Positions 34,380 through 58,763 of a stretch of DNA of 64,000 nt are shown here, piece by piece. This DNA is from Deltaproteobacteria bacterium. GTDB taxonomy: Bacteria > Bdellovibrionota_C > UBA2361 > JAGFJO01. The stretch lies in assembly GCA_024102635.1 (NCBI GenBank), contig JAGFJO010000006.1:45909-109908 (forward strand). The letters are read 5' to 3'. Position 1 is the first letter of the stretch, and every line of letters starts with the position of its first letter. Below the pieces are notes generated by a model. That model saw nothing but the letters and a program-made list of their open reading frames with translations, was not told the DNA's origin and did not search any database. The position numbers and the translations under genes are program-made.

Positions 34380-35438
34380 GTGACGAGCATAGAGATAAGC
34401 AACCTATCAAAAAGCTTCGGCTCCGCACGGGTGCTCGCCAATGTCTCAATAAAGATCGCCAGTGGAGAGTTTTGCTGCCTTGTTGGACCGTCCGGTTGCG
34501 GCAAGACGACTTTACTGCGGCTGGTTGCCGGATTCATCACGGGCGAAAGCGGCGATATTCTTTTCGACGGCAAGTCGGTGAAGGACCTGCCGGTGGCCGA
34601 TCGAGAGATCGGCTTTGTATTCCAAAACTATGCGTTATGGCCGCACATGACCGCTTATCAGAACGTGCTCTTCGGCCTGGAAGCTCGCAAGGTTTTGAAA
34701 AACGAACGAGCACCACGGGCTCACGCTGCTCTAACCTCCGTGCAGATGGATTTATTCAGAAACCGGTACCCGCATGAGCTTTCGGGCGGGCAGCAGCAGC
34801 GAGTAGCTATCGCAAGAGCACTAGCGCTCAAGCCGAAGCTGCTGCTGTTGGATGAACCTTTATCCAATTTGGACACTAAGCTTAGGGAGGAACTTAGAGG
34901 CGTTATCTCTGATTTGCAGCGTGAGCATTCGATTACCACCATTTATGTAACTCACGATCAACATGATGCTTTGGTTTTGGCGGACAAACTGGCGGTGCTG
35001 AGTGAGGGGCGGATAATTCAAAGCGGTACTCCTGAAAGCGTTTATGAAAGCCCTCTCAGCGCTGCAGTTGCCGGATTCATAGGCAGCGCCAATTTTATCC
35101 AGGGCGAGATAGTTTCCATTACGCCGCTCAAGGTTCGCTGCGCCTTCGGTGTGCTCGATGTTGCCAGCTCAATTAGCGATGCAAAGATTGGACACGAAGT
35201 AAAGCTGGCTATCAGACCGTCTTACGTTTCGCTTACTCCCACCGGCGAATGCAGTAATCGTCTCGAGGGTATCGTAATGGAAAATCGCTACTTCGGGCCC
35301 ACCAGAAGAATCGTACTTGAAAGCCAGGCCGGCGCTCTTGTGGCTGAATGTCCTGCCGAACAGGCCGCGCATATACAAACTGGGCAAAAGATATCGATTG
35401 CCCTTCCGCCCCACCGCCTAGTGGCTTTAGCGGCATGA
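34380..35438 (+). CDS. ABC importer ATP-binding protein with C-terminal TOBE domain (Fe3+/thiamine/polyamine type)
   Basis: GTG start. Walker A GPSGCGKTT, signature LSGGQQQRVAIARAL, Walker B LLLDEPLSNLD. Confidence 0.85.
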   Translation: MTSIEISNLSKSFGSARVLANVSIKIASGEFCCLVGPSGCGKTTLLRLVAGFITGESGDILFDGKSVKDLPVADREIGFVFQNYALWPHMTAYQNVLFGLEARKVLKNERAPRAHAALTSVQMDLFRNRYPHELSGGQQQRVAIARALALKPKLLLLDEPLSNLDTKLREELRGVISDLQREHSITTIYVTHDQHDALVLADKLAVLSEGRIIQSGTPESVYESPLSAAVAGFIGSANFIQGEIVSITPLKVRCAFGVLDVASSISDAKIGHEVKLAIRPSYVSLTPTGECSNRLEGIVMENRYFGPTRRIVLESQAGALVAECPAEQAAHIQTGQKISIALPPHRLVALAA

Positions 35439-37096
35439 AAATTTCGCATGCCCTGATAATCCTTGTTTGCGCCGCGTTTCTGGCAGCCTTCCTGTTCTAT
35501 CCGCTTATCTACTCTCTTCGGGCAGCCTTTATATCGGGAGGAGATATATCCTTTGAGCCCTTCGGATTGCTGCTGCAAGATCCGGAGTTCTATCATCTGC
35601 TTTTCAATTCGATAAACCTTGCATTTCTCTCTACCTTCTTGGCGTGCTTGCTGGCACTCCCGCTGGCAGTCGTAATGGAGCGCGTCTCCCTTCCGAGAAA
35701 AAAGATATTTCATATCATTTTATTGTTTCCCTTAATTCTTCCGCCGTTTGTCGGAGCAATCGGCATTCGCAAACTGTTTGCTCGATTTGGGCCGATTAAT
35801 CTCTCCCTCATGCACTCCGACATCATAAGCGAGCCGATTAATTGGCTAACAGAGTCCGGGCTATCGGGAATAGCAATCGTCGAGGCGCTACATTTGTACC
35901 CAATTGTGTACTTGAACTTGCGCGCGTCATTACGGGCGGCCGATCCCGCCCTCGATGAAGCGGCCATAAGTGTAGGAGCCGGCAAGCTGCGCCGCTTCTT
36001 CAGAATCACGGTACCTATGCTTGCACCCGGTTTTTTCTCGGGAGCGGTGCTTGCTTGGATTTGGGCCTTTACCGATCTCGGCACTCCTCTTGTTTTCGAC
36101 TATCAACAGCTACTCCCAGCGAGGCTCTTTCAGATCGCTGACGAGATACACTCCAACCCGCTTGGATTCTGTATTGTCATTATGATGCTTTTGGTAATTG
36201 CTGCCATGCTGCTCCTGTCAAAGGCGGCAGTTGGGATCGAACTCTACCGGCCTTTAGCAAATTCAGGGCGACCGGCACAGCAAGCTTCGCTATCACCACT
36301 GTTACAAGGAGTGGTCATTTTGCTGCTCTCGGCCGCATCGCTCATTGTCATTCTACCGCACGCGGCGGTAATACTTACATCTTTAGCCGATAAGTGGTTC
36401 ATTACAGTAATTCCTGAGGAGCTTGGGCTCGAAGCATATGTCAGTGTGGTGTCTCATCCCTTAACGGCTAGCAGCATTAGAAATAGTCTTTTCCTTAGTA
36501 GCGCAAGCGCCGTTCTCGACTTCATTCTTGGAATATGTCTCGCCTGGCTCATAACCAGAAGAAGGCGTAAATGGACAGGGTGGCTCGACGCCGCAGCGAT
36601 GGCCCCACTGGCAGTACCCGGTATAATTATTTCTTTTGGATACCTGGGCGGCTTCTCTAATACCTCTCTCGATCCGCGCCTTTCTCCCTTCCCGCTTCTA
36701 ATTATCGGATATGCGGTGCGGCGCCTGCCATTCATGGTTCGTTCGGCGGCGGCAGGCTTTCAGCAGGCCTCCCCTCAGCTCGAGGAAGCCGCCTATAGCG
36801 TTGGCGCTTCTGCCGTTATGACGGCAAGACGCGTAACGTTTCCTATCATGAAGGCACATCTTCTGACCGGAGCGATTCTTTGCTTTTGTTTTGCGATGCT
36901 GGAAGTGAGTGAGAGCTTGATACTTGCGGTCCAAGAGCATCACTATCCGATGACGAAAGCCATGTACTCGCTCCTCTCCCGGCCCGACGGCGAGAGCACT
37001 GCCAGCGCGCTTGGAGTGATAGGCATGCTCGTGTTAGCGGCCGGAATGCTTGCTGCGGCAAGGCTAACTGCCAAGAAGGAAAAGATGGAGCCATGA
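35435..37096 (+). CDS. ABC importer permease, duplicated (two MetI-like domains; FbpB/ThiP type)
   Basis: About 12 TM segments with two EAA-like loops. Start chosen at MKISHALI, whose ATG overlaps the ATPase TGA. Confidence 0.8.
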   Translation: MKISHALIILVCAAFLAAFLFYPLIYSLRAAFISGGDISFEPFGLLLQDPEFYHLLFNSINLAFLSTFLACLLALPLAVVMERVSLPRKKIFHIILLFPLILPPFVGAIGIRKLFARFGPINLSLMHSDIISEPINWLTESGLSGIAIVEALHLYPIVYLNLRASLRAADPALDEAAISVGAGKLRRFFRITVPMLAPGFFSGAVLAWIWAFTDLGTPLVFDYQQLLPARLFQIADEIHSNPLGFCIVIMMLLVIAAMLLLSKAAVGIELYRPLANSGRPAQQASLSPLLQGVVILLLSAASLIVILPHAAVILTSLADKWFITVIPEELGLEAYVSVVSHPLTASSIRNSLFLSSASAVLDFILGICLAWLITRRRRKWTGWLDAAAMAPLAVPGIIISFGYLGGFSNTSLDPRLSPFPLLIIGYAVRRLPFMVRSAAAGFQQASPQLEEAAYSVGASAVMTARRVTFPIMKAHLLTGAILCFCFAMLEVSESLILAVQEHHYPMTKAMYSLLSRPDGESTASALGVIGMLVLAAGMLAAARLTAKKEKMEP

Positions 37097-38436
37097 AGAG
37101 CTTTATATTGCTTTTGTGTATCTTGGTGTTTGGTCTCCAGCCTAGCCATGCCGAAGACAAGTTGATAATCGTCTCACCCCACTGGGAAGGAATCCGTTAC
37201 GAAATGGGGAGGGCTTTCAATGAGCACCGCCGAAAGATCGGAGCACCGTCCGTAAAGATTAGCTGGCTGGACGTTGGTGGTACTTCAGAGATACTGCGAT
37301 ATCTCCAATCGGAGTACATGCAGACGCCGGAGGGCGTGCAGATTGATATGCTTTTCGGCGGAGGAATCGAACCGTTCTTGCAGCTCAAAGCCAGCGGCTT
37401 ACTGGAGAGACCTGGGCTGCATGGTGAGGAGTTGGCGGGAGTAGCGCACATGCTGGGAGGAGTTCCTCTTCATGACCCTGATGGTTACTACTATGCTCCG
37501 GTGATATCGGCATTCGGCTTGCTCTGCAATCTCGAGGTACTGAGGACAATCGGCGTTTCGATCCCTGCGAAATGGAGCGATCTGACGGGTGCCGAATACC
37601 GCGGCTGGCTCAGTTCCGCCGACCCGCGTAAGAGCGGTAGTACTCATATGTTCTATGAGATATTGCTGCAAGCTTACGGCTGGGAGCAGGGATGGAAAAT
37701 GATTTTTAATATTGCCGGCAACATCAACTCGTTTTCCTCTCATTCGTCTCAGGTTACGCAGGATGTTATTGGCGGAGAAACAGCATGTGGTTTCGCCATA
37801 GACTCGCAAGCCTGGGCGCAGATCGAACGTTTCGGCTCGGACAAACTTGCTTTCATAGTACCTTCTGATGCCAGTTTCGCTAACGGAGATAGCGCCGCCA
37901 TACTGAAGGGAGCACCGAACTATCAGCTGGCAAGCGATTTTCTCTCGTTCCTCCTTTCCGAAGCGGCTCAAAAGGTCTGGATGTATCGGCCCACATCACC
38001 GGGAGGACCGTCGAAGTATGAACTGGCAAGACTGGGGGTAAGGCCCTCTCTGTACTCTGATCTGCAGCAACAGTCATCCATTTTACTTAACCCATTTTCG
38101 TGGGATAGTAGCCTGCCTTATGATCACAAACTTGGCGCCGCCCGCTGGGGGCTTCTTAACGAGCTGTTAGGGACCTTTGTGCTGACCGCCAAGCACTACA
38201 ATCTAGCTTACTCGGGAAAGTTGCCGGTAAATGAAGAGCAGGCAATGAGTCTCATAAGCTCCGGAGATTGGCACGATCAGGGCCTGCGCCGCAATATCGT
38301 CGCCGGTTGGCGATCCGGCATTTTTAGAGAGATTGATGAAGGTTCGTTGTTTTGGCTCAATGCCGCTCCAACAATAACATTCATTCTATTATGTGTTCTT
38401 GCCATAGTGGTTAGGGCTCGCCGTTTTGGCCGTTAG
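37093..38436 (+). CDS. ABC substrate-binding protein (family 1, Fe3+-type) with an unusual C-terminal TM segment
   Basis: Signal peptide, then a periplasmic binding fold. The last about 30 aa are hydrophobic (AAPTITFILLCVLAIVV) followed by RARRFGR. Confidence 0.65.
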   Translation: MKSFILLLCILVFGLQPSHAEDKLIIVSPHWEGIRYEMGRAFNEHRRKIGAPSVKISWLDVGGTSEILRYLQSEYMQTPEGVQIDMLFGGGIEPFLQLKASGLLERPGLHGEELAGVAHMLGGVPLHDPDGYYYAPVISAFGLLCNLEVLRTIGVSIPAKWSDLTGAEYRGWLSSADPRKSGSTHMFYEILLQAYGWEQGWKMIFNIAGNINSFSSHSSQVTQDVIGGETACGFAIDSQAWAQIERFGSDKLAFIVPSDASFANGDSAAILKGAPNYQLASDFLSFLLSEAAQKVWMYRPTSPGGPSKYELARLGVRPSLYSDLQQQSSILLNPFSWDSSLPYDHKLGAARWGLLNELLGTFVLTAKHYNLAYSGKLPVNEEQAMSLISSGDWHDQGLRRNIVAGWRSGIFREIDEGSLFWLNAAPTITFILLCVLAIVVRARRFGR

Positions 38437-38449
38437 CTTCACAAAAAAA

Positions 38450-41101
38450 TCATATCCCGATCTCTCCACCGCTTGCACGCTTCAAGTAACCCTTTGCCAA
38501 GATAAAGCATAATACAGCCAGTGTTATTAGTGACACGGTCTTGGTGACGTAAAGAAACGAGGGCTGGAATGCCAGCAGCACTGTGCTTTCACCTTCGATT
38601 AAAGGCACTCCCAAAAATGCATAATTAAAGATGTAGGTAGGAACTGGTTCGCCGTTGACGTAAGCCCTCCATGCTGGATCATAGGGCTGCAACAGCACAA
38701 GATACGAGCTTCTTTCAGTGTGCACGGATATCTCATAGACGCCCTCGCCGGCACGGCGAAGATCCAGCTTCAAACTGTCTCCTTTTGAAGGTCCTTCGGG
38801 TAAAAGCGCGCGTTGATCCTCGATTAGCACCGCCTCCTCAAAGTCCATGTTCTCAAGGCGTTTGATTGCATTTGAAGGGTGCGGTTCATACACCGACGAT
38901 GCGGCAAGAAATGCCGGCCGAAACTGGAGCGATCGTTTAAGCACAGACACGCCTCCCGATAACACGACTTTCCACTCTTTTCCGGCTATCAACTCAGCGA
39001 CCGAGCGGGGGGCGACAATATGAGTCACTCTTAGAAGATCTAATAGAGGTGAATTATATTCAAAACTAGCCGATGAAAAGCTATTACCAGAAGACTTAAG
39101 CCGAGCATCGAGTGCCTCGACAATCTCCCGCAATCTGGCGGGAAGCGGATTCGCAGGATCAATAGTGGATATGCCGTACGCTTTTGCAGCGTGAACTGGA
39201 AACACGCCGTCCAAACTGACGAGCCTAGAACGGCCCTGCCCGTCACTCTTGAGAGCCGAGATCAGTTCGGTCTGGGGGAAATTGAGTGCATTCGGCAGGT
39301 AAGGAATCAAGGGGCTGTTTACGACTAGGAGATCCAGAAACGAAGCAAGGACTATCATCTTACCGGAAATACCTCCCCCTTCCCTGGCAAAGGAAAAAAA
39401 CCCGATCAATAGAAGAGATGCTAGGATAAGCGCCACTTGTACCATGAAACGAAATCCCGACTGCGGGTGATCGCTATCCATTTGAAGAGCCGTGGGATCA
39501 ACAAAAAAAGCAGTGGACGGCAAGACCGCCAGCAATAAGATTAAAATCGGAAACAAGATTTGGCGCTTTTCGGCACTCCCATTTAGCACTGCATCAAGGC
39601 CAGCACCCGATCCTATCGCCAACAAAAAGGTAAGGAGTCCAGCGATGAGCTGAGAATCCCCCAATCCGAGAATTGAGATGACACGCGAGTTTCTCGCTCC
39701 ACCAACATCAAACGCAAGCATGCAAATGATTGAGAACGCAGCCAAGAAAGAGATAGAAAGCCGCCGAGGCCGAGATAGAAGCGCTGATAAGAAAAGTACG
39801 AGGGGAATAATTCCAATGTATATGGTATTGACCTGCGGTCCGCCGTCCAGCTGAGGGAACACCGGCATGGCCGGAGAGAAGTTGAGCTGTAGAGACTCCC
39901 CGGTAAAAGCAGCAATGTTCGCTCCCGCATGCACCGCCGGCCCTAGGGAAGGAACGATCGCTGCCGCCAGCAGCAACAAGGCCCCACACAGGCCGGCAAA
40001 CAAATAGCCTGCATGCCTAATACGCGCCGCCCAAAGCTTCTGCGCCGCCTGCAGCCGCCACAAAGCAAATACTGCCGAACACAGCAGCATGCCCCACCCG
40101 AAGCGGGGCACACAAAGTGAGAGATAAACCGCCAGGGTGAGCAGCGGAACTAAATAGACCGTGCCCCGCTTGGTGCACCGCTCAATCAAGAAAAGAAGCA
40201 TCGGCAGGAAGCAGATCCCTGTGAGCGCAAGGTTAAACAAAGTAGCGCATGAAAATGCAAAGGCTGTTGCCGCCAGAAGCGATGCCACATGCGAAGCTCG
40301 CCAGGCGCGGGCGAGTAGATAGGTGAAAACCGCCGCCATTAGCGCCTTTGCAAAAAATGCCGCCGTCAAGCCCCAACCCGGGCCGAGCAAGACCGCCAGC
40401 CATGCATCCGGTGAAAAGGAGTGCCTCATTAGCTGGTCCGGGTATCCCGATAAGAAGAGCGCAGTATCAGCAAGAGTAAATACCCCGGCCTCGGTAACTT
40501 CGTTGAAGAAATGATAGTAGCTCGACCAAAGCTGCGACAACTCATCGGTCACTAGGGGACCGGCAACCGCTTGATGCACACCCTGTGCCGCGAATGCCGG
40601 GAACCTATAAATATATGAAAGAGGACTTATGGTTTGCCCTTGAAATACCGGATGAAAGAATAGCGCCGCAAAAAGAAAAATCGCCCAAAACGCCCATGGT
40701 GAAGGTCTAACAGGCAGCACATGGCGCCATAGCTGCATTTCGAAAATGCAGGCCGCTATAGTAAAAAAGGCAACTAGCCAAGCGCATCCTTCCAACAGCG
40801 ACTCGAATGGGATCAACAACGCCGCTATAAATGCTGCGCTCAGGAAACGGCGCTCATAAAAAACCTCAAGAAAAGAAGCGACGCCGCGGCGGGGCGAGAC
40901 AACATGCAGCAGTCCGAAGGCATAAAGGGCGGCTGTTCCGATTGGAATTAAGCATAGCACCATCAACAAAAGCAATCGCTGGATCAGATCGGGAGTTCCA
41001 ATAACCGGTGCCGGCAGCAAAACAGATATGGCTCTAATGGCCCAAGGAAGCCCGCACAAGAAATAGAGCAGAGAGGCGGACGGAGAAGATCTTTTGTCCA
41101 T
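38450..41101 (-). CDS. large polytopic membrane protein, YfhO-like / GT-C fold glycosyltransferase candidate
   Basis: 883 aa. At least 13 TM helices span the first ~560 residues, followed by a ~300-aa soluble C-terminal domain. Architecture is that of the YfhO family. Assignment is by topology only. Confidence 0.5.
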   Translation of the reverse strand: MDKRSSPSASLLYFLCGLPWAIRAISVLLPAPVIGTPDLIQRLLLLMVLCLIPIGTAALYAFGLLHVVSPRRGVASFLEVFYERRFLSAAFIAALLIPFESLLEGCAWLVAFFTIAACIFEMQLWRHVLPVRPSPWAFWAIFLFAALFFHPVFQGQTISPLSYIYRFPAFAAQGVHQAVAGPLVTDELSQLWSSYYHFFNEVTEAGVFTLADTALFLSGYPDQLMRHSFSPDAWLAVLLGPGWGLTAAFFAKALMAAVFTYLLARAWRASHVASLLAATAFAFSCATLFNLALTGICFLPMLLFLIERCTKRGTVYLVPLLTLAVYLSLCVPRFGWGMLLCSAVFALWRLQAAQKLWAARIRHAGYLFAGLCGALLLLAAAIVPSLGPAVHAGANIAAFTGESLQLNFSPAMPVFPQLDGGPQVNTIYIGIIPLVLFLSALLSRPRRLSISFLAAFSIICMLAFDVGGARNSRVISILGLGDSQLIAGLLTFLLAIGSGAGLDAVLNGSAEKRQILFPILILLLAVLPSTAFFVDPTALQMDSDHPQSGFRFMVQVALILASLLLIGFFSFAREGGGISGKMIVLASFLDLLVVNSPLIPYLPNALNFPQTELISALKSDGQGRSRLVSLDGVFPVHAAKAYGISTIDPANPLPARLREIVEALDARLKSSGNSFSSASFEYNSPLLDLLRVTHIVAPRSVAELIAGKEWKVVLSGGVSVLKRSLQFRPAFLAASSVYEPHPSNAIKRLENMDFEEAVLIEDQRALLPEGPSKGDSLKLDLRRAGEGVYEISVHTERSSYLVLLQPYDPAWRAYVNGEPVPTYIFNYAFLGVPLIEGESTVLLAFQPSFLYVTKTVSLITLAVLCFILAKGYLKRASGGEIGI

Positions 41102-41256
41102 GTTATTCCGTTCAATCTACCGGCGTTGAAGCGATCTATCAAGTTAGGAAACTGCCGATCTAACTCGGCAAGACCATCCATCGTGTCTCGCTCAGGGGCC
41201 GCGAGAAACACCTGTTCTTGTTTGACAAACGCCTTACCTCAGGCTACTGATTATGC

Positions 41257-42030
41257 ATGCCTGCCCCTAACGCTTCAAAGCACTTGCCATTAGTAAGCAT
41301 AATAGTAAGAACGGTCGACCGTCCCTACTACCTGCGCGAGTGCCTCACGAGTTTGCTCGTGCAGGACTACCCTAATATTGAAATCATCATCGTAAACGAC
41401 GGGGGAGAGAGCGTGAGTGCCCTGGTCGAGGAATTGGGCCTCCCGTTCCGGCACCAACTTATCGAGCTGAAGGAGAATCGAGGCCGATCGGAGTGTGGAA
41501 ATATCGGTCTTGATCATGCGAGCGGAAAGTACATCGGCTTTATCGATGATGATGACATCTTCTACTCTTTTCACATTTCGACCCTTGTATATAAGCTGAT
41601 CAACTCCAACTACAAGGTGGTCTATTCCGACGGACTGCAAGCCCGGCAGATAAAATGCCCATTCAACGATAAGATGTACTCGACGGTGGAACTTACCTTG
41701 GTGTTATCGGAAGAGTTCGACTTCCAGGATCTTCTTACGCGCAACTACATTCCGATTCTTTGCGCCCTTTTTGACCGATGCTGCATTGAAGAAGGCATTA
41801 GGTTCGACACCTCAATGGACGTACTGGAAGACTGGGATTTTTGGATACGTATAGCAAGGCACTACGACTTTGCCCATTTGAAGCAGATCACCTGTGAATA
41901 CCGCTATCGCTCCGACGGCTCGAATACGGTAGGCCAGCTGGATCATGTTTGGGAATGGTGCCGCAATCACATAAAACATAAGTATTCCATCTTAAGAAAG
42001 GGGCGGGTTAATATGGAGCTGGCAAGCTAG
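41257..42030 (+). CDS. glycosyltransferase family 2
   Basis: VSIIVRTVDRPYYLRECLTSLLVQDYPNIEIIIVNDGG and a DDD motif. Confidence 0.8.
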   Translation: MPAPNASKHLPLVSIIVRTVDRPYYLRECLTSLLVQDYPNIEIIIVNDGGESVSALVEELGLPFRHQLIELKENRGRSECGNIGLDHASGKYIGFIDDDDIFYSFHISTLVYKLINSNYKVVYSDGLQARQIKCPFNDKMYSTVELTLVLSEEFDFQDLLTRNYIPILCALFDRCCIEEGIRFDTSMDVLEDWDFWIRIARHYDFAHLKQITCEYRYRSDGSNTVGQLDHVWEWCRNHIKHKYSILRKGRVNMELAS

Positions 42031-42039
42031 GGAAGGACT

Positions 42040-42840
42040 ATGGGGGATGCTAAAGTTGCATTTGACTTCAACAAGATGACGGTCGAAGAGCAGGAAGCTG
42101 CTATTCAGAAGGTTGTTCAACTGCTTGCAGGTAAGTCGAGCGTTCTATGCATCGGAGCTTCCGCATTAAGGCTTGCCGAGACGCTGGCGGCCTACGAGTC
42201 GCGCCGAGTAACGTTACTCACTGACAACAGCGACTTCATATCCACCGATCAAAGCAGTTCGGTGCGTATCCTAGTTGAGCCGCTTGCTTCAGACAGCTTT
42301 CTATCACGCTTTACGCCCGATGAATTTGATGCGGTAGTGCTAACCGATCCTCCACTTAGCAGCAACACCGTCACCAGCAAGCTCCCGTCGCTACTGACCT
42401 TCTTCACCGGGGCATTGGTCGTATCTATTCCGGAGCTAATCACCGAGGAGCAGGCAATCATAAGAGAGCAGGCACTAGAGATTGAGAGACTTAAGAAGGT
42501 TCTGCGGGTGCGGGAGGAAACGATCTCTTGGTACTCGAAGCGCTTAAGGGAGCATCTAGTTAGTCATTACAAGCTTGAGGGCACACATGCAGAGCGCAAG
42601 CGCGAACATGAATTAAGCAGTGAACTTGAACGAAAGAACCAAGAGTACTCTGCGCTGCTCGCTGACCGCGATCGCATCAAGGACTATGCCGACCGGCTGT
42701 CGCGATATTCCGCCGATCATCTGCCTTTGATTCTGCGCTATCCTGTCAAGGCTCTCATTGCTCTGTGGGCATACGGCCCGCTAGAGCCGATTCGAATCAT
42801 CAGAAAAAAAAAATCTATAAAAAGCCAGCCCGGCAGTTAG
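42040..42840 (+). CDS. hypothetical protein: Rossmann-like N-terminal domain plus C-terminal coiled coil
   Basis: The N-terminus has degenerate MTase-like motifs (VLCIGASA; DAVVLTDPP). Residues ~140-235 are heptad-rich coiled coil. The last codons run through an A10 tract. Confidence 0.45.
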   Translation: MGDAKVAFDFNKMTVEEQEAAIQKVVQLLAGKSSVLCIGASALRLAETLAAYESRRVTLLTDNSDFISTDQSSSVRILVEPLASDSFLSRFTPDEFDAVVLTDPPLSSNTVTSKLPSLLTFFTGALVVSIPELITEEQAIIREQALEIERLKKVLRVREETISWYSKRLREHLVSHYKLEGTHAERKREHELSSELERKNQEYSALLADRDRIKDYADRLSRYSADHLPLILRYPVKALIALWAYGPLEPIRIIRKKKSIKSQPGS

Positions 42841-43784
42841 AAGAACATCCCGCCATAGAAGTTCTCACCCTGGCTTACAACTCCGAGCGCTTTATCGATG
42901 GCTATTTCTCAGCCTTTTCTCGAATTAACTACCCCTTTGAAAAGATAACAATTCGCATCCTGGATAATCACCCGGAGCACGCCTCGTTTAGGCTGATAGA
43001 AGATCGAATCGTTAGACCCGGAACATATCCTATACGCATTGTACTAGAAAAGTCCGAGCGTAATTTGGGTTTTACGGGAGGCAATAATCTGCTTATGGAG
43101 CGGGCGCTGAATGAAACCGATTCTCCATTCGTTTTCCTCCTTAATATGGATACTCGCATCGATCCGGAATGTCTTAGCGAACTGGTTCGCTTCATGCGTG
43201 AGGATAACTCTGCCGGCATGGTGGAGGCGCTACAAGAGCCGCGGGAACATCCTAAAGCCTATGATTTGCGGACATTCGAGACCCACTGGTGCTCCGGAGG
43301 GGGCGTACTAATTGATAGACGCGCTCTCGAGGAGGTCGGACTATTTGACGATCGCTTTTTTCTATACTGCGAGGATGTAGACTTAAGCTGGCGGATGTGG
43401 ATGAACGGGTGGAGGTGCAAGATAAATCCCAAGGCCAAATATGTGCACCTGACCGAGTCAGATGACACCGGCAAGGATCTCACTAATCAGCACTACTACA
43501 GTATGCGCAACTGCTTCTTTATGCACTACAAGTACGATTCCCGGCGTGGCATCAAATCTTTGGAAGCTCTGCTGCGGGAGACGCTTGCGAAAGAGCCCGA
43601 CCCCAAGCAGCGCGCCATATTTGAACGGGCATATAATGACGCCCGGCAGCGGCGGCTTAGCTTTTTCATGGATAAACTTAAGCTTTCTCTCCTTCCTCGC
43701 AGTCAATGGATGGTTTTTGAGGGCTTTTCGTTCGAAAAACGGCGTGCGTTTATTGATGAAGCGGATCGTCGTATTATACTATGA
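42765..43784 (+). CDS. glycosyltransferase family 2 (start uncertain; overlaps upstream ORF across an A10 tract)
   Basis: GT-A fold signatures: IEVLTLAYNSERFID, FLLNMDTRIDPE, and FFLYCEDVDLSWRMWMNGW as the DxD region. Confidence 0.75.
   Translation: MGIRPARADSNHQKKKIYKKPARQLEEHPAIEVLTLAYNSERFIDGYFSAFSRINYPFEKITIRILDNHPEHASFRLIEDRIVRPGTYPIRIVLEKSERNLGFTGGNNLLMERALNETDSPFVFLLNMDTRIDPECLSELVRFMREDNSAGMVEALQEPREHPKAYDLRTFETHWCSGGGVLIDRRALEEVGLFDDRFFLYCEDVDLSWRMWMNGWRCKINPKAKYVHLTESDDTGKDLTNQHYYSMRNCFFMHYKYDSRRGIKSLEALLRETLAKEPDPKQRAIFERAYNDARQRRLSFFMDKLKLSLLPRSQWMVFEGFSFEKRRAFIDEADRRIIL
42804..42813 (+). repeat. A10 homopolymer tract at the junction/overlap of two ORFs
   Basis: Read directly from the sequence. 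Inserting one A would fuse frame 42040 with frame 42765. Confidence 0.9.
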
Positions 43785-43814: not shown

Positions 43815-44738
43815 ATGTCAGCGGGGCCCACACTCAACCTTAATTCCTTTAACCATGACATGCACTATTCGGACGGCGAATCCGAACAGCGCCTGCTCGC
43901 CCATTTTAAGGAAGCTAAGAACCCCGAAGACATTCTTTCCCTTTTAACAGATAAGCCCGATTGGCCTACTCTCTATCACCTCTCACCTGAAAGAGAGAAC
44001 CTTCTATCTTGGTTCGATTTCAACTCCGACTGCGAGCTGCTCGAGATCGGCGCCGGCTGCGGAGCTTTAACGGGGCTATTTTGCAGGCGGGCGAGGAAAG
44101 TTACGGCCGTGGAGCTGACCCGTCTTCGCGCAGAGATAATACTTCAACGGTGCAAACACTACAGCAACCTCGAGATCATCGTAGGAGATTTCAACCAGAT
44201 AGAGTTCGAGCGGCCCTTTGACTATGTGACTTGCATAGGAGTGCTTGAATATGCCGGGCGTTACGGCAGATCTGCCAGACCTTACGATCACCTGCTTGCG
44301 CGGACCAGGTCACTGCTCAAGCCGGGGGGGTGCCTTATTCTTGCAATAGAGAATAAGTTCGGTCTGAAATACTGGTCCGGCTGCCGGGAAGATCATACGG
44401 GTCGAATGTTCGAATCCATCGAAGGCTATCCCGGCAGAGATGGCGTCCAGACTTTTGACAGGGGTGAGTTAGAGCGCATGCTCAACACGGCCGGATATTC
44501 CAATCTGCAATTCTACTACCCACTGCCCGACTACAAGCTGCCGGTCGAGATCTTTTCCGACGCCTATCTTCCCTCGCCCAGACACTCGGTCAGGCCTGGC
44601 TTGCTACCTACGCCCGATCCTTCCGGCGAAAGAGCTGAACTTTTCGATGAAGCGCTTGTAATGGATAGTATTATCGGAGCCGGGCAGTTCAGCTTCTTTG
44701 CAAACTCATTTCTTGTCTTTGCAAAGGCTGTCCCATGA
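43815..44738 (+). CDS. class I SAM-dependent methyltransferase
   Basis: Motif I LEIGAGCGALTG, motif II VTAVE, and post-I/III segments. 307 aa. Confidence 0.8.
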   Translation: MSAGPTLNLNSFNHDMHYSDGESEQRLLAHFKEAKNPEDILSLLTDKPDWPTLYHLSPERENLLSWFDFNSDCELLEIGAGCGALTGLFCRRARKVTAVELTRLRAEIILQRCKHYSNLEIIVGDFNQIEFERPFDYVTCIGVLEYAGRYGRSARPYDHLLARTRSLLKPGGCLILAIENKFGLKYWSGCREDHTGRMFESIEGYPGRDGVQTFDRGELERMLNTAGYSNLQFYYPLPDYKLPVEIFSDAYLPSPRHSVRPGLLPTPDPSGERAELFDEALVMDSIIGAGQFSFFANSFLVFAKAVP

Positions 44739-45925
44739 TAATCTATTCAAGATTCAACTCCCGGCGAAGACGGCGCTTTCAGCTGCGAACCAGTGTTGAA
44801 CTGCGAGGCGACACGCTGGTGGTAAGCAAACACGCCATGCAACCAGAAGCTGTGCCGTTTTTGCAGGAGATATTGCTTGCCTACAGCAAGTTGAGCGAGC
44901 TCAAATTGCCATTTGAAATCAATAAACCTTACCGCTCCGAAAAGAATCAGATAAGTTTTGATTACATTGATGCCGACTCACTGGAGTCGCTGTTAATTGG
45001 GTGTTTGAGGCGCAAGCAGAAAGACTCATTTCTTAATATGATAGCGCACTACTGCGAACAGGTACGTTCCTTCCCTCAAGTCCCGCAGCAGTCCGACCGG
45101 CATTTCAAGTCTGTATTTGGAGATCATCCTGCATCCGAATGCGACTGCCTCTCCATAGGATGCCTTGACATAAATTTCGACAATATTCTGGCAAAAGACG
45201 ACGGCTTTGTTCTTATAGACTACGAGTGGACTTTCCCTTTCCCGATACCGGCGGACTTTATAATTTTCCGCGCCATCCTAGGTTTTTACGGCAACAACAA
45301 AAGATTACGCCCAAATTCGCTGGTACCATTAGAAGAGGCATTAAGGCATGCCGCCATAGCACCAGAAAACTTCGAATCTTTTCTGCGGATGGAGAATCGA
45401 TTCCAACAATACGTCTATGACGATATTCCAAGCACCGATACTAACGGTACAAGTGCACTGAGTGAACTCGGCAAAGATCCGCCAACCGAAGGGCCGGCCA
45501 GCCGCCTCGTTGCCATGAACGCCTACCTTCTCTTCTTGGAGAAAGAGAACGCTCTTAAGCAATCTTGGATTATGAAGCTGGAAGACAGCATAAGGGCAAA
45601 GGACTCTTGGACCTCGAAGTTGGAGCAGGACAACTCCAACTTGCGGCACTCAACCGAGGAGCTCAGTAAGCAGCTAACCGAGATCAAGGCCGGACAAGCG
45701 GCTTTATCGCCGACCAAGGTGTACGACTCGCAGCTCCAACCAGTCAAAGATCGCCTAGCTACTCTTGAATCCGAGCTGCAGCGCAAAGACGAGCTTATAG
45801 AGGATTTAGAAAAGACCGTTCTGTCAAAAAGCGAATGGATTTCAAAACTGCAAGAAGAAGTTCTGAGTTTTACATCCTCTCTTCAAGAGCTTCGGCAGCA
45901 GATGGAAGAGTTAACCAAGCGTTAA
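44735..45925 (+). CDS. protein-kinase-like (PKL) fold protein with about 150-aa C-terminal coiled coil (WbdD kinase/ruler-like)
   Basis: Beta-3 Lys context LVVSKH and a catalytic-loop-like CLDINFDNIL (HxDxxxxN pattern with C in place of H). The metal-binding IDYEW resembles the DFG/ChoK IDxE. Then a long heptad-rich C-terminus. Its ATG overlaps the TGA of the methyltransferase (ATGA). Confidence 0.55.
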   Translation: MIIYSRFNSRRRRRFQLRTSVELRGDTLVVSKHAMQPEAVPFLQEILLAYSKLSELKLPFEINKPYRSEKNQISFDYIDADSLESLLIGCLRRKQKDSFLNMIAHYCEQVRSFPQVPQQSDRHFKSVFGDHPASECDCLSIGCLDINFDNILAKDDGFVLIDYEWTFPFPIPADFIIFRAILGFYGNNKRLRPNSLVPLEEALRHAAIAPENFESFLRMENRFQQYVYDDIPSTDTNGTSALSELGKDPPTEGPASRLVAMNAYLLFLEKENALKQSWIMKLEDSIRAKDSWTSKLEQDNSNLRHSTEELSKQLTEIKAGQAALSPTKVYDSQLQPVKDRLATLESELQRKDELIEDLEKTVLSKSEWISKLQEEVLSFTSSLQELRQQMEELTKR

Positions 45926-47136: not shown

Positions 47137-48237
47137 CTACCAGGTCAGTGAAGCGGCCGTCTGATACTCAGTCACGCGCGTCTCAAAAAAGTTCTTCTCT
47201 TTCCCAAGGTCGATCGTTTCGCTCATCCAGGGGAACGGATTCTTCGAGCCGTACTGGCTCTTTAGTCCGATCCTCTCAAGCCGGCGGTCCGCAATATATT
47301 GAACATAATCTCTGAACATCGGCGCTGATAATCCGAGTATCCCGCGCGGCAAACAGTCTACGGCATAGTTGTACTCCAGCTCGACAGCCTGTCTGATACG
47401 ATCCACCATCTGCTGCTGAAACTCCGGCGTCCAGACCTCCGGGCTCTCTTCCTTTATACCGTTGATCAGATCAATTCCGAAGTTAAGATGAATGGTTTCA
47501 TCCCGCAGAATATACTGGAACTGTTCCCCGATGCCGGTCATCTTGTTCTGGCGGTGGAACGAAAGGATCATCACGAAGCCGCTATAGAAGAAGATGCCCT
47601 CCATAATGACGTAAAAGCCTATCAAGTTCTCGAGGAACTTCTGCTTGCCTTCGAAGGTATCGGTGGAGAACTCCGGACGAATAACGTCCGCGGTCAGCTC
47701 CATTTCGAACTTGTCTTTATCGTGAATTGAATTCACCTCGTTGTACATGTTGAAGACCTCCTGCTGATCAAGCGAGAGGGACTCAACTATGTAGTGGAAG
47801 GTATGGGTATGAACTGCCTCCTCGAAAGCCTGCCTTAACAAATACTGGCGCGCTTCCGGGTTGGTTACGTGCTTGAATATCGCAAGTACGATATTGTTCC
47901 CGACCAAACTCTCGGCAGTGCTGAAAAACCCAAGATTGCGCATGATAACACGGCGCTCATCCGCGCTAAGCCTGTCGGACTTCCAAAGCTCTATATCTTT
48001 GCCCATTGGCACTTCAGTCGGCAGCCAGTTGTTTGCGCAGCCGTTAAGGTAATGCTCCCATGCCCACTTATATTTAAGCGGCATTAGCTGGTTTACATCC
48101 ACGGTTTGGCAGTTAATCAACCGCTTGTCGCTCTGGTTGACGCGGCCCTTTCTACCTATCAGATCGGATGAGTTCTCTTGCTCATCGCTGTTTGAACCAT
48201 CGGCTTTCCCCCCGGGGATATCATCAAAATTAAGCAT
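47137..48237 (-). CDS. nrdB: ribonucleotide reductase class Ia beta subunit
   Basis: Ferritin-like di-iron ligands (EEAVHTH ..., [18 protein letters not shown]) and a C-terminal acidic tail for R1 binding. Confidence 0.9.
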
Positions 48238-48268: not shown

Positions 48269-51200
48269 TTATTGGCAGCTCTCGCAATCTCCGTCCAGAT
48301 TGCAAACTGCCTTAGGTACAGCAATGGCACGGTTTTCAGCGCCGGCGGATTCTCCGCCGGCCGGCGCATCACCGGAACGAGGCTCTTCACCCTCGGACTG
48401 CCGATCCACCTTGATGTTGCTGGATGCCGACTTACTCTTCATCCAGCGCGGCTGCAACCCGCGGCGGTTGATATCGGTGGTGGATTTCTCGATCTGAGTT
48501 GCTCCTAGCGACCGCAGATAGTAGGTAGTCTTAAGTCCCTTGCGCCAGGCATGCAGATACATGTCGTGGAGTTTTTTCCCGCTCGGCTCAGCGATATAGA
48601 GATTAAGCGATTGACCCATATCTATCCACTTCTGACGTCTCGAAGCGCACTCAATCAACCACTCGGGCTCAATCTCGAATGCGGTGAGGTAAATGCGCTT
48701 AAGGTCATCCGGAATTCGCTCAATCTCCATAATGGAGCCATCAAAATACTTCAGATCATCCACCATCTCATGATCCCAAAGTCCGAGCGCTTTCAAGTCA
48801 TTCACCAGGTACACGTTGTACACGATGAATTCACCGGACAGGTTCGATTTGGCGTATAGGTGCTTGTACGCGGGCTCAATCGACTGAGTGATTCCGGTAA
48901 TGTTGGAGATCGTCGCCGTAGGCGCGATAGCCATCGTATTGCTGTTCCGCATGCCGTTCTGACGCACGGCCTTACGTAGCGTCTCCCAATCTAGAGTCGA
49001 ACTTCGATCTACATCTACGTCACCTCCACGCTGCTCCTCCAGCAGTGCGATGGTGTCAATCGGCAGAAGGCCCCGGTCCCACTTCGATCCTTTATAGGTC
49101 GAGTAAGTTCCTTTTTCCTTAGCCAAGTCGCTGGAAGCCAAGATGGCATGGTAGGAGATGAGCTCCATACTCTGATCGGCGAAGTTAACCGCTTCAGGGC
49201 TGGCATAGCTCAAGCGCTGCTCGTAAAGAGCGTCCTGGAATCCCATTACTCCCAGCCCGATTGGGCGGTGTCGCAGGTTGGCATTACGCGCTTCAGGCGT
49301 CGGATAAAAGTTAATATCAATAACGTTGTCCAACATTCTCACCGCGGTCCTTACGGTCGCTGCAAGCAGCTTTGCATCAAGCTTACCGTCCTTTATATGG
49401 GCCGGAAGATTAATAGAGCCGAGATTGCAAACTGCGGTCTCCTCTTTGGAGGTATTCAGCAAAATCTCGGTGCAAAGATTCGAGCTGTGCACCACACCGA
49501 CATGATCCTGCGGCGAGCGGATGTTTGAAGGATCCTTGAAAGTCATCCAAGGATGTCCAGTTTCATAGAGCATGCTGAGCATTTTTCGCCAAATCCCCAT
49601 CGCCTCGACTCTCTTGAAAAGCTTGATCTCCCCCTGGTCAACCATCTTTTCATATTCCTCGTAGCGCTTTTCGAATGCCGTACCGTAAAGATCATGGAGA
49701 TCGGGCACATCGCTCGGGCTAAACAATGTCCATTGTCCATTTGATGCTACGCGCTTCATGAACAGGTCTGGGATCCAATTCGCGGTGTTCATGTCGTGGG
49801 TTCGCCGGCGCTCATCGCCTGTGTTCTTCCGAAGCTCAAGAAAATCCTCGATATCCAGATGCCAGGTCTCGATATAGGCGCACATCGCCCCTTTGCGCTT
49901 GCCGCCCTGGTTAACTGCCACAGCGGTATCGTTAGCAACCTTAAGGAAAGGAATCACCCCCTGACTACGTCCGTTTGTACCCTTAATGCGAGCACCGGTG
50001 GCACGTACATTCGTCCAGTCGTTCCCGAGTCCGCCGGCCCATTTGGATAGCTGAGCGTCATCCGAGATGACCTTAAAGATATGCTGCAGATCGTCCATTA
50101 CGGTGGAAAGATAGCAGCTGCTCAGCTGCGGGTGCATCGTTCCGGCATTGAATAAGGTAGGAGTACTCGAGACAAATCTGAACTGAGAAAGAACGTTATA
50201 GAACTCAACCGCTCTCTGGTTTTTCTGTTCCCCTTCGAGAACGCTCAATCCCATTGCGACCCGCATCCAAAATATCTGCGGAGTTTCAAGGCGGATATCG
50301 TTACTGTGAATGAGATAACGATCGTACAGAGTTTGCAAACCGAGATATGCGAAATTCAGGTCTCGCTTAAGATCCAACGCCTGAGAAAGAAAATCGAGAT
50401 CGAATTCCAGCAGCTTGGGGTCAAGGCGCTCGAGCGAGATCGCCTTGCTTAGATAGCTCTTGAAATATTTGCGGTGCTCCTCTTCCAGTTTTGGGTTGTG
50501 CGCGTCGATGCCGAAAGCCTCACGATAAATCACATCTAGCAGCAACCCGGAGGCGACATAGGAGTAAGCCGGCTCCTTCTCTATTTTGGATCGCGCGGCC
50601 ATAATATTGGCCTGATCGATCTCTTCTGCTTTGATGCCGTCATAGAAGTTGCGAAGAGATTCCTGCAGCACCTCTTCGCTTGAAACCAAACCCTGCTGCT
50701 CAAATTCTTTGCAGGCAAAGGATATGCGGGTGCGAAGATCGCCCTCCGATATAGTAGCCGCGCTGCCATCCCGGCGAGTTACCGAGTAGCGGACCTCAAC
50801 CTTCTCTTCCTGCTCTTTCTCTCCGGTAATCTGAGGTGCAGGCCGGACCTCTTCGGCGGCTGGCTGGGTACGAAGGGCGCTGCGCTGAGCGCGATAAATA
50901 ATAAAATCCTTGGCAACTTGATAGAAGCCTTCCGCCATCATTTGACGCTCAACTTCGTCCTGAATAAGTTCAATCTCTATTGTCGCGCCGCTCTTGGCCC
51001 GCTCAACCGCTTTGGAGACGACTTTATTCGTAAGAAGATTTACTGCGTTAATGATCTCCTGGGGTGAAGGCCCGTCGACTTTGAGCGAAGCGCGGAAAGC
51101 GCGCTCAATCGCCGATGCGATCTTCATTGGGTTGAAACGCACAAAAGTCTTGCCGTCACGGCGCAAGACCTTAAGATTGCGAGGGGAATCGTCTCTTAGC

Positions 51201-51637
51201 TGCTTATGCTCGTCTCTGTAAATTATATAGTTTCTGGCAACCTCGTAGTGACCGCTTTGCATCAGCTTTACTTCAACAAGGTCCTGAATTCCCTCGACGG
51301 TCAGCGCAGCACCCTGCATGGCTTGCTTGCTTAGTTCGTCCGCTACAAGCGCCGTAACCTCCTGAACGGTACTGTAAATCTCTTGAGGAAGTGGAGATGT
51401 TATCGCGATGCTGTTTGTGGCGCGAAAGGCCGCTTCGATGGCAGAGAATATTCTATCGCGCCGGAAGGGCACCAGCATCCCGTTGCGCTTCACAACCGCT
51501 ATCGTGGTGGGCGGCGATTTCGACGGACGCTCAAGGTCCACATTTTTTGCGGACCCATTTTCCTTGGCCTGCTGTGATGTGAGGCCACCGTTTAATCCAT
51601 TATTGGTTGAAGATTCGTTCGATCCGATGCTTTCCAT
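48269..51637 (-). CDS. nrdA: ribonucleotide reductase class Ia alpha subunit with three N-terminal ATP-cone domains
   Basis: Three VxKRDG-type cone starts ([34 protein letters not shown]). Catalytic-core motifs are present. The C-terminal [11 protein letters not shown] is the redox Cys pair. Confidence 0.95.
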
Positions 51638-57782: not shown

Positions 57783-57938
57783 ATGCAAGATTTACTGCTA
57801 TTTTTAGCCGTGGCCTTAGCCGCCGCATACCTGCTTTATAGGGCGCGCCGCTCTCTCAGCGGAAAGGGCGGTTGCAACTCATGCAGCCGCTCTCCTGCGA
57901 ACCAGCATCTCATAAACGAAATAAAAAAGAGAAAATGA
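57783..57938 (+). CDS. small membrane protein (TM helix plus GGCxxCS), resembling FeoB-associated Cys-rich membrane protein family
   Basis: 51 aa: MQDLLLFLAVALAAAYLLYRARRSLSGKGGCNSCSRSPANQHLINEIKKRK. Its TGA stop overlaps the queF ATG (aaaATGAgt). It is below the length cutoff of the ORF track. Confidence 0.45.
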   Translation: MQDLLLFLAVALAAAYLLYRARRSLSGKGGCNSCSRSPANQHLINEIKKRK

Positions 57939-58759: not shown

Positions 58760-58763
58760 AATT

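Follow-up and report, generated by a model that had tools for sequence, protein, structure and literature searches.

A conserved run of ten adenines as a putative recoding signal between a coiled-coil ORF and a glycosyltransferase ORF in uncultured bacteria

Conserved recoding sites in chromosomal, non-mobile bacterial genes are few to our knowledge: prfB, dnaX, copA, a number of genes for type III secretion and a few more. Homopolymers within coding sequences also occur in the phase-variable LOS, LPS and capsule glycosyltransferases of host-adapted pathogens, where tract length varies by strain and on and off alleles coexist. For bacterial slippage, the threshold is a run of at least nine A or T (PMC1088944, PMC5009743). 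In vivo, RNA polymerase slips efficiently on runs of nine A/T, and T. thermophilus dnaX makes use of such slippage (PMC5009743) at an A9 run; two-ORF dnaX genes with ten A's are found in Chlorobi and others (PMC3711429, PMC5009743), and transcriptional realignment has been proposed for them (PMC3711429). E. coli dnaX employs a -1 ribosomal frameshift at A_AAA_AAG (PMC3711429, PMC5009743). Overlapping ORFs are also joined at a run of at least nine A or T in Shigella flexneri mxiE (T9) and in IS orfA-orfB (PMC1088944, PMC5009743). According to Baranov et al. 2005, slippage is functional if ORF organisation and run are conserved in non-identical homologues (PMC1088944).

In glycan assembly, chain length depends on the occupancy and stoichiometry of a coiled-coil ruler and a polymerase (PMC11231755). 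Coiled-coil rulers have been described as WbdD (E. coli O9a and K. pneumoniae O3, O5), WbbB (O12) and ORF6 of K. pneumoniae O7, the latter consisting of an N-terminal methyltransferase, a coiled coil and two C-terminal GT2 modules (PMC11231755). No described ruler has been reported to need a frameshift. Here we analyse a 64-kb stretch of DNA (hereafter the window) in which a coiled-coil ORF (ORF1) and a GT2 ORF meet at a run of ten A's.

Reading frames at the A10 tract

The ten consecutive A's (ATCATCAG-A10-TCTATAAAAAGC) form the longest homopolymer of the window, followed by one A8 and two T8 (A7 n=8, A8 n=1, A9 n=0, A10 n=1), and lie inside a 76 nt overlap of ORF1 and the GT2 ORF (Table 1). 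Relative to ORF1, the GT2 ORF occupies the -1 frame (start coordinates modulo 3: ORF1 1, GT2 0), the ORF1 stop falls 24 nt past the run, and an A_AAA_AAA heptamer within the run is in phase with ORF1. Adding one A to the run resulted in a single uninterrupted ORF of 581 aa; the same ORF is completed by the -1-frame continuation once the mRNA has gained an A or the ribosome has slipped by -1, with ...IIRKKKIYKKPAR... as predicted junction peptide. Promoter-like or terminator-like sites were not found at the ORF1/GT2 junction. A previous sequence-only reading of the window had located the A run, both ORFs and the effect of one inserted A as we find them; its values of 75 nt for the overlap and ~590 aa for the fusion have to be replaced by those given above. 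Other same-strand overlaps of the window (19015/19917, 32122/32849, 57872/58689, 59473/60084 and 22964/23746) were inspected as further splits and rejected, as they involve different genes.

Table 1. Features of the window and location of the A10 tract in three other lineages
Feature	Position	Strand	Remark
Wzm, ABC-2 permease	32122-32910	+	PF01061
Wzt, ABC ATPase with carbohydrate-binding Wzt_C	within 32849-34270	+	PF00005 and PF14524
Small GT2 gene	41257-42030	+	directly upstream of ORF1
ORF1, zero-frame product	42040-42840	+	266 aa, ATG start; NCBI: hypothetical protein J5J00_00610
GT2 ORF	42765-43784	+	339 aa; public annotation MCO6429335.1
GTG, annotated GT2 start (MCO6429335.1)	42765-42767	+	sole canonical GT2-frame start upstream of the fold
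A10 tract, proposed slippage/frameshift site	42804-42813	+	ORF1 frame: AG[A AAA AAA AAA] TCT (R-K-K-K-S)
-1-frame continuation	42813-43784	+	linker IYKKPARQLEEHPA and GT2 (GT-A fold) catalytic domain; TGA 43782-43784
Class I SAM methyltransferase gene	43815-44738	+	downstream of GT2; L092 gene order identical
Kinase-like N-domain with C-terminal coiled coil	44735-45925	+	396 aa
A10 in L092	1450-1459		CTT-A10-GAGCCTAG
A10 in L093-L096	4786-4795		CG-A10-GTCCCAGAATAG
A10 in L097	5118-5127		CTTC-A10-GCTCGG

ORF1 encodes a Rossmann-like N-domain followed by two long helices, the conserved motif HLPLILRYPVKALIALWAYGPLEPIRIIRKKK and a non-conserved tail of 8 aa that ends at TAG 42838-42840. In its motif I, VLCIGASALRL replaces GxGxG (compare VLDLGCASGY), so that the SAM-binding glycines are missing, and a Pfam search of ORF1 gave no match. 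By these two measures a catalytically competent terminating enzyme was not detected in ORF1 of the window. The N-domain looks like a degenerate methyltransferase, and a profile search with the ORF1 family was dominated by ordinary methyltransferases. The AlphaFold2 monomer model comprised five beta-alpha units (residues 1-130) and helices at residues 136-176 and 186-221, the latter two lying between the Rossmann-like and GT2 domains with a pLDDT of only 43-73. This agrees with the Rossmann-like and coiled-coil domains initially read from the letters, at moderate to low confidence in the helices. The downstream ORF, likewise recognised as a GT2, exceeded the cut-offs of PF13632 (47.4 bits, cut-off 27), PF13641 (32.6, cut-off 27) and PF00535 (28.3, cut-off 23.3), and its structural model matched the GT-A enzymes PcManGT, GalNAc-T2, GlfT2, TarS and RmlT in Foldseek (E ~1e-11 to 1e-13).

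Fused and split relatives

Homologues with 45-52% identity encode the region as a single polypeptide, in which a methyltransferase or kinase is followed by a coiled coil, the motif and GT2. In the alignment, P0002, P0004, P0005, P0006, P0007 and P0010 carried the C-terminal motif of ORF1 and GT2 in one chain, the motif being kept as HLPxLLRxPVKAxI...GPLEPIR. The conceptual ORF of 581 aa aligned over its whole length, junction included, with P0002, P0004, P0006, P0007 and P0010. The helical part is longer in homologues, which possess a genuine methyltransferase or APH domain. In five fused ones, the K/R linkers are written in mixed codons and lack any long A run. Among genome contigs, in a collection without the window's own genome, only two relevant loci were found (L001 and L002), both of them fused; the 78 others were distant GT2s. 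A9 runs near GT2 genes in L053 and L056 are in frame and unrelated to the A10 split. Searching metagenome contigs with a junction profile yielded one locus, identical to P0007. A tblastn search of plasmids returned only distant GT2s, and a cultured carrier of the A10 arrangement was not found.

The gene order of the window was shared by three other lineages, namely L092, L093-96 (three haplotypes from four sequencing runs, all A10) and L097. In all four lineages, the window included, the run is exactly A10, occupies the same alignment column and accompanies an ORF1-to-GT2 offset of -1. It is the sole homopolymer of at least 8 nt in the loci of L092, L093-96 and L097, where ORF1 stops 5-37 nt after the run and GT2 then goes on in the -1 frame. 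In the GT2 frame, no ATG, GTG or TTG occurs until 239 nt (L092), 147 nt (L093) and 292 nt (L097) after the start of the run, well inside the catalytic fold, and L092 has a TAA in the GT2 frame immediately 5' of A10. As the GT2 frame offers no early start, gene callers truncated GT2 to 250, 263 and 228 aa, respectively.

The A10 relatives are short-read metagenome assemblies of uncultured organisms, and the lineages are environmental with 38-58% GC. The run was seen in independent assemblies (one NCBI MAG plus Logan contigs of six or more runs); Logan contig L085, which stems from the window's own sample (SRR13799152) and has the upstream gene in identical form, spans ~40993-42205 only and ends before the tract. 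Proteins of the four lineages are 43-55% identical, and identity at third codon positions is 29-38%, i.e. near saturation. Outside the tract, AAG is the prevailing Lys codon in three of these lineages (AAA fraction 0.28, 0.23 and 0.18). Given this codon preference and the strong divergence, an all-A run is not expected from the protein sequence alone. Within its codon, the first A of the run takes position 3, 1, 3 and 2 in the four lineages.

An exhaustive HMMER search added P0089, P0090, P0092 and P0094, which are ORF1-like, stand alone and terminate shortly after KKK. P0087 is encoded on 23 contigs; the three haplotypes from four runs all have A10, and its 90% cluster is a single sequence. 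A rough NJ tree calculated without support values separated L097 from the remaining three A10 lineages; the A10 state may thus be ancient with subsequent losses or may have arisen more than once. The comparison of orthologous loci suggested by the sequence-only reading returned two groups: fused homologues without the run, and split A10 lineages without an early GT2 start. Since the protein is continuous in the former, and three more lineages share the A10 and frame layout of the window, the comparison supports ORF1 and GT2 being halves of one coding unit, with A10 as the point at which the reading frame must change.

If ORF1 and GT2 were instead two genuine genes, then GT2 would start at GTG 42765 or, through termination-reinitiation, at a non-canonical codon, and the A run would be the remnant of a lysine-rich linker. 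The public annotation does list two genes, and the GTG exists. GT2 relatives that stand alone with proper ATG starts are known as well (P0213, P0216-P0221), and L087 is naturally split at the same linker by a TAA-G-GTG junction, its own GTG following 1 nt after the stop. Covalent fusion is thus not obligatory for the fold. P0012, P0013 and P0016 were rejected as further splits, as their upstream ORFs encode an unrelated protein without coiled coil. However, GTG 42765 is embedded in a stretch conserved in the ORF1 frame (ALWAYGPLEP), L092, L093-96 and L097 have no equivalent of it, and no SD-like element was found 5-10 nt upstream of it (AAGG is located 14-17 nt upstream). This GTG is probably adventitious. 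The buried ATG from which GT2 had been supposed to initiate is not there: the codon at 42765 is this unconserved GTG, and the first in-frame ATG of GT2 follows at 43095, 291 nt past the start of A10. Since the GTG lies in frame 39 nt upstream of A10, a feature that distinguishes the window from the other three lineages, some independent initiation of GT2 would be possible in the window. For L092, L093 and L097, two genes would have to do without a canonical start until far into GT2, in L092 with a stop codon immediately preceding the run, and in AAG-preferring genomes the all-A 10-mer would remain unexplained. We therefore regard two separate genes as very unlikely.

The sequence-only reading had put phase variation first. 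Under such a scheme, DNA polymerase slippage would toggle the run between A10 (GT2 off) and A11 (fused, on) and thereby switch a surface-glycan glycosyltransferase on and off heritably. As in phase-variable glycosyltransferases, the homopolymer is part of the coding region of a glycosyltransferase gene for surface glycans, where one added base restores the frame. Poly-A is slippery for DNA polymerase, too (PMC3711429), and selection for a mutable tract could hold a long run at one site. If the off state is the commoner one, then its presence in all four lineages has a chance of ~0.05-0.2 on frame alone. The stronger argument against this switch is the identical length: all lineages and haplotypes observed share a run of 10 that is out of frame, despite the deep divergence of the four lineages, and this differs from the strain-dependent tracts of the pathogens. 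Of the two features that define a contingency locus, the frame-switching repeat in a coding sequence was present, and tract-length polymorphism was not seen among the four lineages and three haplotypes. No A11 or in-frame A8 allele and no allele with an alternative tail is on record, a fused version of the window gene was absent from the protein collection, and the fused relatives have no run at all. In addition, these are uncultured environmental organisms, and the window has no other long homopolymer. That is, the tract stands as the point of frame change, while DNA slippage as its mechanism is unlikely.

Homopolymers are classic sites of indels, and the source genome of the window is a MAG. 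The true genome could read A11, with A10 as an assembly or sequencing error, or a recent 1-nt deletion could have created a pseudogene from an ancestral protein that was continuous, judging by the fused homologues. Against both stands the recovery of A10 by independent assemblies in four lineages, which also effectively excludes the assembly indel raised by the sequence-only reading. Furthermore, no other frame-broken gene was seen in the window, its A8, T8 and G7 runs being located in intact ORFs or outside them, and both halves are full-length and conserved, unlike those of a pseudogene. An artefact or decay appears highly improbable to us.

A probable slippage signal within one gene

A programmed frameshift, mentioned in the sequence-only reading as one option, is favoured by the comparative evidence, that is by A10, the offset and the missing starts in four lineages. 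We consider it likely that ORF1 and GT2 form one recoded gene and that A10 is a conserved and selected slippage signal. Under standard decoding, the 266-aa coiled-coil protein would be produced. A fraction of expression events would shift to the -1 frame at A10 and lead to the 581-aa coiled-coil-GT2 fusion, and only this fusion would contain a GT2 whose N-terminal nucleotide-sugar-binding half is intact. Slippage of RNA polymerase on the T10 template, giving A11 mRNAs that are then read normally, would be the most likely event. Alternatively or in addition, -1 ribosomal frameshifting of tRNA-Lys on A_AAA_AAA could contribute, with the same protein as a result. Slippage, with its occurrence and efficiency predicted here, would thus supply a short and a long product, both of which we take to be functional.

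Transcriptional slippage and ribosomal frameshifting are inseparable from sequence. On the transcriptional side, A10 exceeds the nine A or T known from slippage sites inside coding regions, an added base joins ORFs that are a single ORF in homologues, and ORF organisation and run are conserved in non-identical homologues as outlined by Baranov et al. 2005. With 10 nt, the run is also longer than the 7 nt demanded by a frameshift heptamer, which may be taken as a hint at the mechanism. On the ribosomal side, an in-phase heptamer of the X_XXY_YYZ type exists in all four lineages (A_AAA_AAA in the window, L092 and L093; A_AAA_AAG in L097). A conserved stimulator, which is common and not obligatory, was not found: RNAalifold predicted 0 conserved pairs downstream across the four lineages (single-sequence fold of the window: z = -0.85), and the only structure upstream was a trivial hairpin of 5 pairs within the GP.EP codons, while an SD-like element common to the four was not detected.

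The locus resembles dnaX in several respects. Both have a poly-A (lysine) site in a cellular, non-mobile gene, ten A's recur, and polymerase and ribosome are both candidates for the slip. Short and long products with a common N-terminus, made at a fixed ratio for a multi-subunit assembly, are shared features that are predicted in our case. The shifted product would be the longer one, as proposed for two-ORF dnaX genes. However, dnaX belongs to a different gene family and serves the clamp loader of the replisome, whereas ORF1-GT2 would serve glycan assembly; moreover, no stimulatory SD or hairpin was found for A10, and the recoding of the window gene is predicted. The joining of overlapping ORFs at a long run, predicted in our case, and the conservation of run and ORF organisation among non-identical homologues are shared with mxiE and IS orfA-orfB, but ORF1-GT2 is neither a mobile element nor a virulence-plasmid regulator.

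Glycan-assembly context

As in ruler systems, the window encodes Wzm together with a Wzt that carries Wzt_C, and this pair identifies the glycan pathway as ABC-transporter-dependent and terminator-gated. The Wzm/Wzt pair of L093-L096 is located directly upstream of the small GT2 gene, which is syntenic with the coiled-coil-GT2 unit in fused and A10-split relatives alike. The order of the fused homologues, a terminator-type domain (SAM methyltransferase or kinase-like), a coiled coil and GT2, corresponds to that of O7 ORF6, with one GT2 module here versus two there. The N-domain of the window differs from the rulers in lacking both the SAM-binding glycine motif and a Pfam match, and PDB sequence searches for a relationship to WbdD or WbbB gave no specific matches.

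In a Wzm/Wzt complex, a fixed ratio of short to long product would set the stoichiometry of polymerase module and coiled-coil 'ruler', and hence chain length. We tentatively suggest, with more doubt than confidence, a new family in which an A10 signal (RNA polymerase slippage and/or -1 frameshifting) yields a ruler/adaptor and its GT2-fused form at a fixed ratio that determines chain length. Such a family in ABC-transporter-dependent glycan loci of several uncultured lineages would be previously undescribed. If it exists, the frameshift-fixed ratio would be a new way of hard-wiring ruler:polymerase stoichiometry, in parallel to dnaX frameshifting for tau:gamma, and the strict A10 signature across lineages of 38-58% GC would lengthen the list of chromosomal recoding sites.

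For annotation, the 'hypothetical protein' and the N-terminally wrong or truncated GT2 would then need correction, the GT2s of the relatives being short by 50-100 residues. When MAGs are curated, a broken frame at a homopolymer should not automatically be taken for an error or a pseudogene.

Two further genes next to the GT2 ORF, one for a methyltransferase and one for a kinase-like coiled-coil protein, are another likeness to ruler systems. The methyltransferase is a candidate for the chain-terminating activity. The gene of the kinase-like protein overlaps that of the methyltransferase by ATGA and follows it in the same order in L092 (407 aa there), and the N-terminus of its product matches the N-domain of P0223, which is itself fused to a GT2.

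Reading frames around the A10 tract

The longest homopolymer of the 64-kb window is a run of ten A's (A10; followed in length by one A8 and two T8), located, as the sequence-only reading had stated, in the overlap of ORF1 and a glycosyltransferase family 2 (GT2) ORF. The overlap spans 76 nt, not 75 nt. A conceptual edit adding one A joined the two frames as claimed, but the resulting ORF comprises 581 aa rather than about 590. Pfam confirmed the downstream product as GT2, and ORF1 gave no Pfam match. Both are annotated on a 222,705-bp contig of an NCBI MAG labelled 'Deltaproteobacteria bacterium', ORF1 as hypothetical protein J5J00_00610 (MCO6429334.1) and the GT2 as a 339-aa protein (MCO6429335.1). 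The GT2 had been thought to initiate from an ATG buried in ORF1; its only canonical start in the upstream region is GTG (42765), and the first in-frame ATG follows at 43095. No SD-like element was found at the usual spacing upstream of this GTG.

Features of the window and of the modelled ORF1-GT2 fusion
Feature	Position	Strand	Remark
trp operon	22964-29482	-	trpE, trpG, trpD, trpC, trpF, trpB, trpA (Pfam)
wzm, wzt	32122-34270		Wzt with Wzt_C carbohydrate-binding module
Solute ABC importer	34380-38436		between wzm/wzt and GT cluster
YfhO-like membrane protein	38450-41101	-	between wzm/wzt and GT cluster
Small GT2 gene	41257-42030
ORF1	42040-42840	+	266 aa
ORF1 N-domain	42040-42430
GT2 ORF	42765-43784	+	339 aa; -1 frame versus ORF1
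A10	42804-42813
SAM methyltransferase gene	43815-44738		downstream of GT2
Kinase-like gene	44735-45925		kinase-like N-domain, C-terminal coiled coil
Ribonucleotide reductase, small subunit	47137-48237
Ribonucleotide reductase, large subunit	48269-51637	-	class I; 1122 aa
queF, queC, radical-SAM (queE-like) cluster	57872-60165
Rossmann-like domain	residues 1-130		AlphaFold2 model
Two long helices	residues 136-176, 186-221		AlphaFold2 model
Conserved motif as helices	residues 230-245, 249-260		AlphaFold2 model; KKK 256-258
GT-A domain	from residue 273		AlphaFold2 model

Fused and split homologues

All evidence for recoding at A10 is comparative and was drawn from metagenome assemblies. Searched with the conceptual fusion, the protein collection yielded proteins of 424-785 aa (45-52% identical) spanning both halves, in which the ORF1 C-terminal stretch (WY..K.RE..., then HLPLILRYPVKALIALWAYGPLEPIRIIRKKK) is continuous with the GT2 domain in single polypeptides (alignment A1). 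Their N-termini comprise bona fide SAM methyltransferases (P0004, P0005, P0014), an APH-type kinase-like domain (P0002, P0007), a methyltransferase-like domain (P0006) or a short coiled coil only (P0010), and a small GT2 gene, as in the window, always lies directly upstream. Since these homologues are continuous through the region, the stretch from 42765 to the run is selected in the ORF1 frame; the annotated GTG sits within it. After GPLEPIR, five fused homologues have a basic linker encoded by a mixture of Lys and Arg codons, and a long A run was absent from all five.

An exhaustive HMMER search with ORF1 alone detected stand-alone ORF1-like proteins ending a few residues past a KKK at the linker position (P0086, ...RILKKKRA*; P0087, ...RILRKKKVPE*; P0089, ...VALKKKRQNGDASKP*; P0090, ...YFKKKSQSKPEREQ*; P0091, ...VLQKKKLGNISPLMPSRR*; P0092, ...LRQKKKPRESLELEI*; P0094, ...RRQKKK*). 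Three such lineages were compared at the DNA level. L092 (Logan ERR12350055; ...CGAATCCTT-AAAAAAAAAA-GAGCCTAG) has the gene order of the window: small GT2, ORF1-like, GT2, methyltransferase and kinase-like coiled coil. L093-L096 (four runs, three haplotypes; ...GGATTCTTCG-AAAAAAAAAA-GTCCCAGAATAG) carry Wzm and Wzt-Wzt_C directly upstream, and L097 derives from SRR8731049 (...AGGGTTCTTC-AAAAAAAAAA-GCTCGG). In all four lineages, window included, the run is exactly A10 in the identical alignment column, ORF1 stops 5-37 nt past it, the GT2 domain follows in the -1 frame, and one added A gives an uninterrupted ORF (581, 600, 576 or 698 aa). No second homopolymer of 8 nt or more occurs in the L092, L093-L096 and L097 loci. 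Judged by their divergence (43-55% protein, 49-57% nucleotide and 29-38% third-position identity), the lineages are old. Away from the run, AAG is the preferred Lys codon in three lineages (AAA fraction 0.28, 0.23 and 0.18; 0.67 in the fourth), so an all-A 10-mer is unexpected from protein sequence alone; the joint probability, considering Lys codons only, is roughly 10^-5 to 10^-6. In a rough NJ tree L097 fell away from the other three, among fused forms; the A10 state thus implies either several losses or more than one origin.

An assembly indel or a recent pseudogene is very unlikely, as a run of the same length would not recur across four diverged lineages assembled independently, and no other broken genes were seen in the window. 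The trp operon, complete-looking, and the que cluster are intact, supporting good assembly quality.

Could the GT2 instead be initiated independently of ORF1? Some GT2 relatives stand alone and have proper start codons, and L087 (4532-6002), split at the same linker without an A run, carries its own GTG; the GT2 fold is thus not strictly dependent on fusion. This route is not available, however, in three of the four A10 lineages: no GT2-frame ATG, GTG or TTG occurs until +239 (L092), +147 (L093) and +292 nt (L097) from the run start, well within the catalytic fold, and in L092 a TAA lies directly 5' of the run in that frame. Lacking an earlier start codon, these GT2s were called as only 250, 263 and 228 aa. 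The window GTG accordingly looks adventitious. Comparing orthologous loci, as the sequence-only reading had suggested, gave single-chain homologues without the run and three split lineages with A10.

In L087 a 155-aa coiled-coil ORF terminates with ...RSSTRS-TAA, and the GT2 begins in a different frame one base past the stop (TAA-G-GTG), which looks like ordinary translational coupling, a third arrangement of the same two modules. P0214 (14,978-nt JGI contig), P0008 and P0009 (short JGI contigs) are GT2s starting at an internal Met (MTLGFNS...) or at GTG-coded residues shortly before the first beta-strand, and are probably further A10-split genes; P0009 and P0094 both lie on 3313-nt JGI contigs.

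Probable slippage at A10

Baranov et al. recognize functional transcriptional slippage by overlapping ORFs and a run that are both conserved among non-identical homologues, while other homologues are encoded by a single ORF (PMC1088944). The A10 loci display this pattern, which backs the programmed frameshift that had been raised as an alternative. We favour RNA-polymerase slippage, whereby A10 would become A11 in the mRNA and the GT2 frame would be joined to ORF1, over a purely ribosomal event, because the conserved length exceeds the 7 nt required by a frameshift heptamer and, at ten bases, is close to that of the RNA-DNA hybrid (PMC5009743), because the first A of the run takes codon position 3, 1, 3 or 2, depending on the lineage, because neither a conserved downstream RNA structure nor an upstream SD-like stimulator was found at their A10, and because two-ORF dnaX genes with 10 A's were interpreted likewise (PMC3711429). 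A_AAA_AAA or A_AAA_AAG is nevertheless in phase in all four, and -1 ribosomal frameshifting may act alone or contribute; either event would yield the identical fusion (...IIRKKKIYKKPARQLEEHPAIEV...). With one A fewer, a stop follows 4-25 nt past the run, and such transcripts would give only ORF1-like short products.

To phase variation by tract length, the switch originally proposed, we assign a minority probability. One A does restore the frame, but such a switch predicts length polymorphism with in-frame and out-of-frame alleles. Instead, A10 was out of frame everywhere, with one length and frame state also in the three haplotypes of the best-sampled lineage, and the 90% cluster of P0087 is a single sequence. 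A fused allele of the window gene was not found among 15 billion proteins by a word-indexed search whose negatives do not equal absence: with the L093 fusion it missed P0087, present in the collection and 100% identical over 268 aa.

Signals of this type are already known, but in this gene family they appear to be new: a search of mainly open-access literature, covering the main recoding surveys and a review, found no case of slippage in glycosyltransferase genes.

The probable glycan locus and the ORF1 N-domain

Roughly 7 kb separate the wzm/wzt pair from the GT cluster; the longest wzt ORF has a TTG start and overlaps wzm by 62 nt, which makes its start codon tentative. Downstream of the GT2, the methyltransferase and kinase-like coiled-coil genes overlap by ATGA and resemble a WbdD-type terminator (methyltransferase, kinase, coiled coil) divided between two translationally coupled genes. 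PDB searches gave no sequence match. The MIIYSRFN... N-terminus of the kinase-like protein recurs in P0223, joined there directly to a GT2 domain. By gene content, Wzm, Wzt-Wzt_C, methyltransferase and kinase-like coiled coil correspond to the components of ABC-transporter-dependent, terminator-gated O-polysaccharide assembly, a pathway in which the coiled-coil proteins WbdD, WbbB and K. pneumoniae O7 ORF6 (methyltransferase, coiled coil, two GT2 modules) are molecular rulers, and chain length is shaped by polymerase-site occupancy on the ruler (PMC11231755). By analogy, we hypothesize that slippage could fix the proportion of 'ruler alone' to 'ruler-GT2' and thereby set ruler/polymerase stoichiometry and hence chain length, much as dnaX produces tau and gamma. 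This idea is the newer, unproven part.

The AlphaFold2 model of the fusion (mean pLDDT 70) has a GT-A domain resembling GT2 enzymes such as GlfT2, TarS and RmlT. The Rossmann-like N-domain of ORF1 and its A10-bearing relatives had no Pfam match above cut-off. In the window, P0086, P0087 and P0091 it aligns with true SAM methyltransferases, but the motif-I SAM-binding glycines are gone in the A10 lineages (VLCIGASALRL versus VLDLGCASGY), and the domain may be purely structural, a pseudo-enzyme scaffold. Elsewhere in the window, the ribonucleotide reductase large subunit, adjacent to the small one, carries three N-terminal ATP-cone stretches (Pfam).
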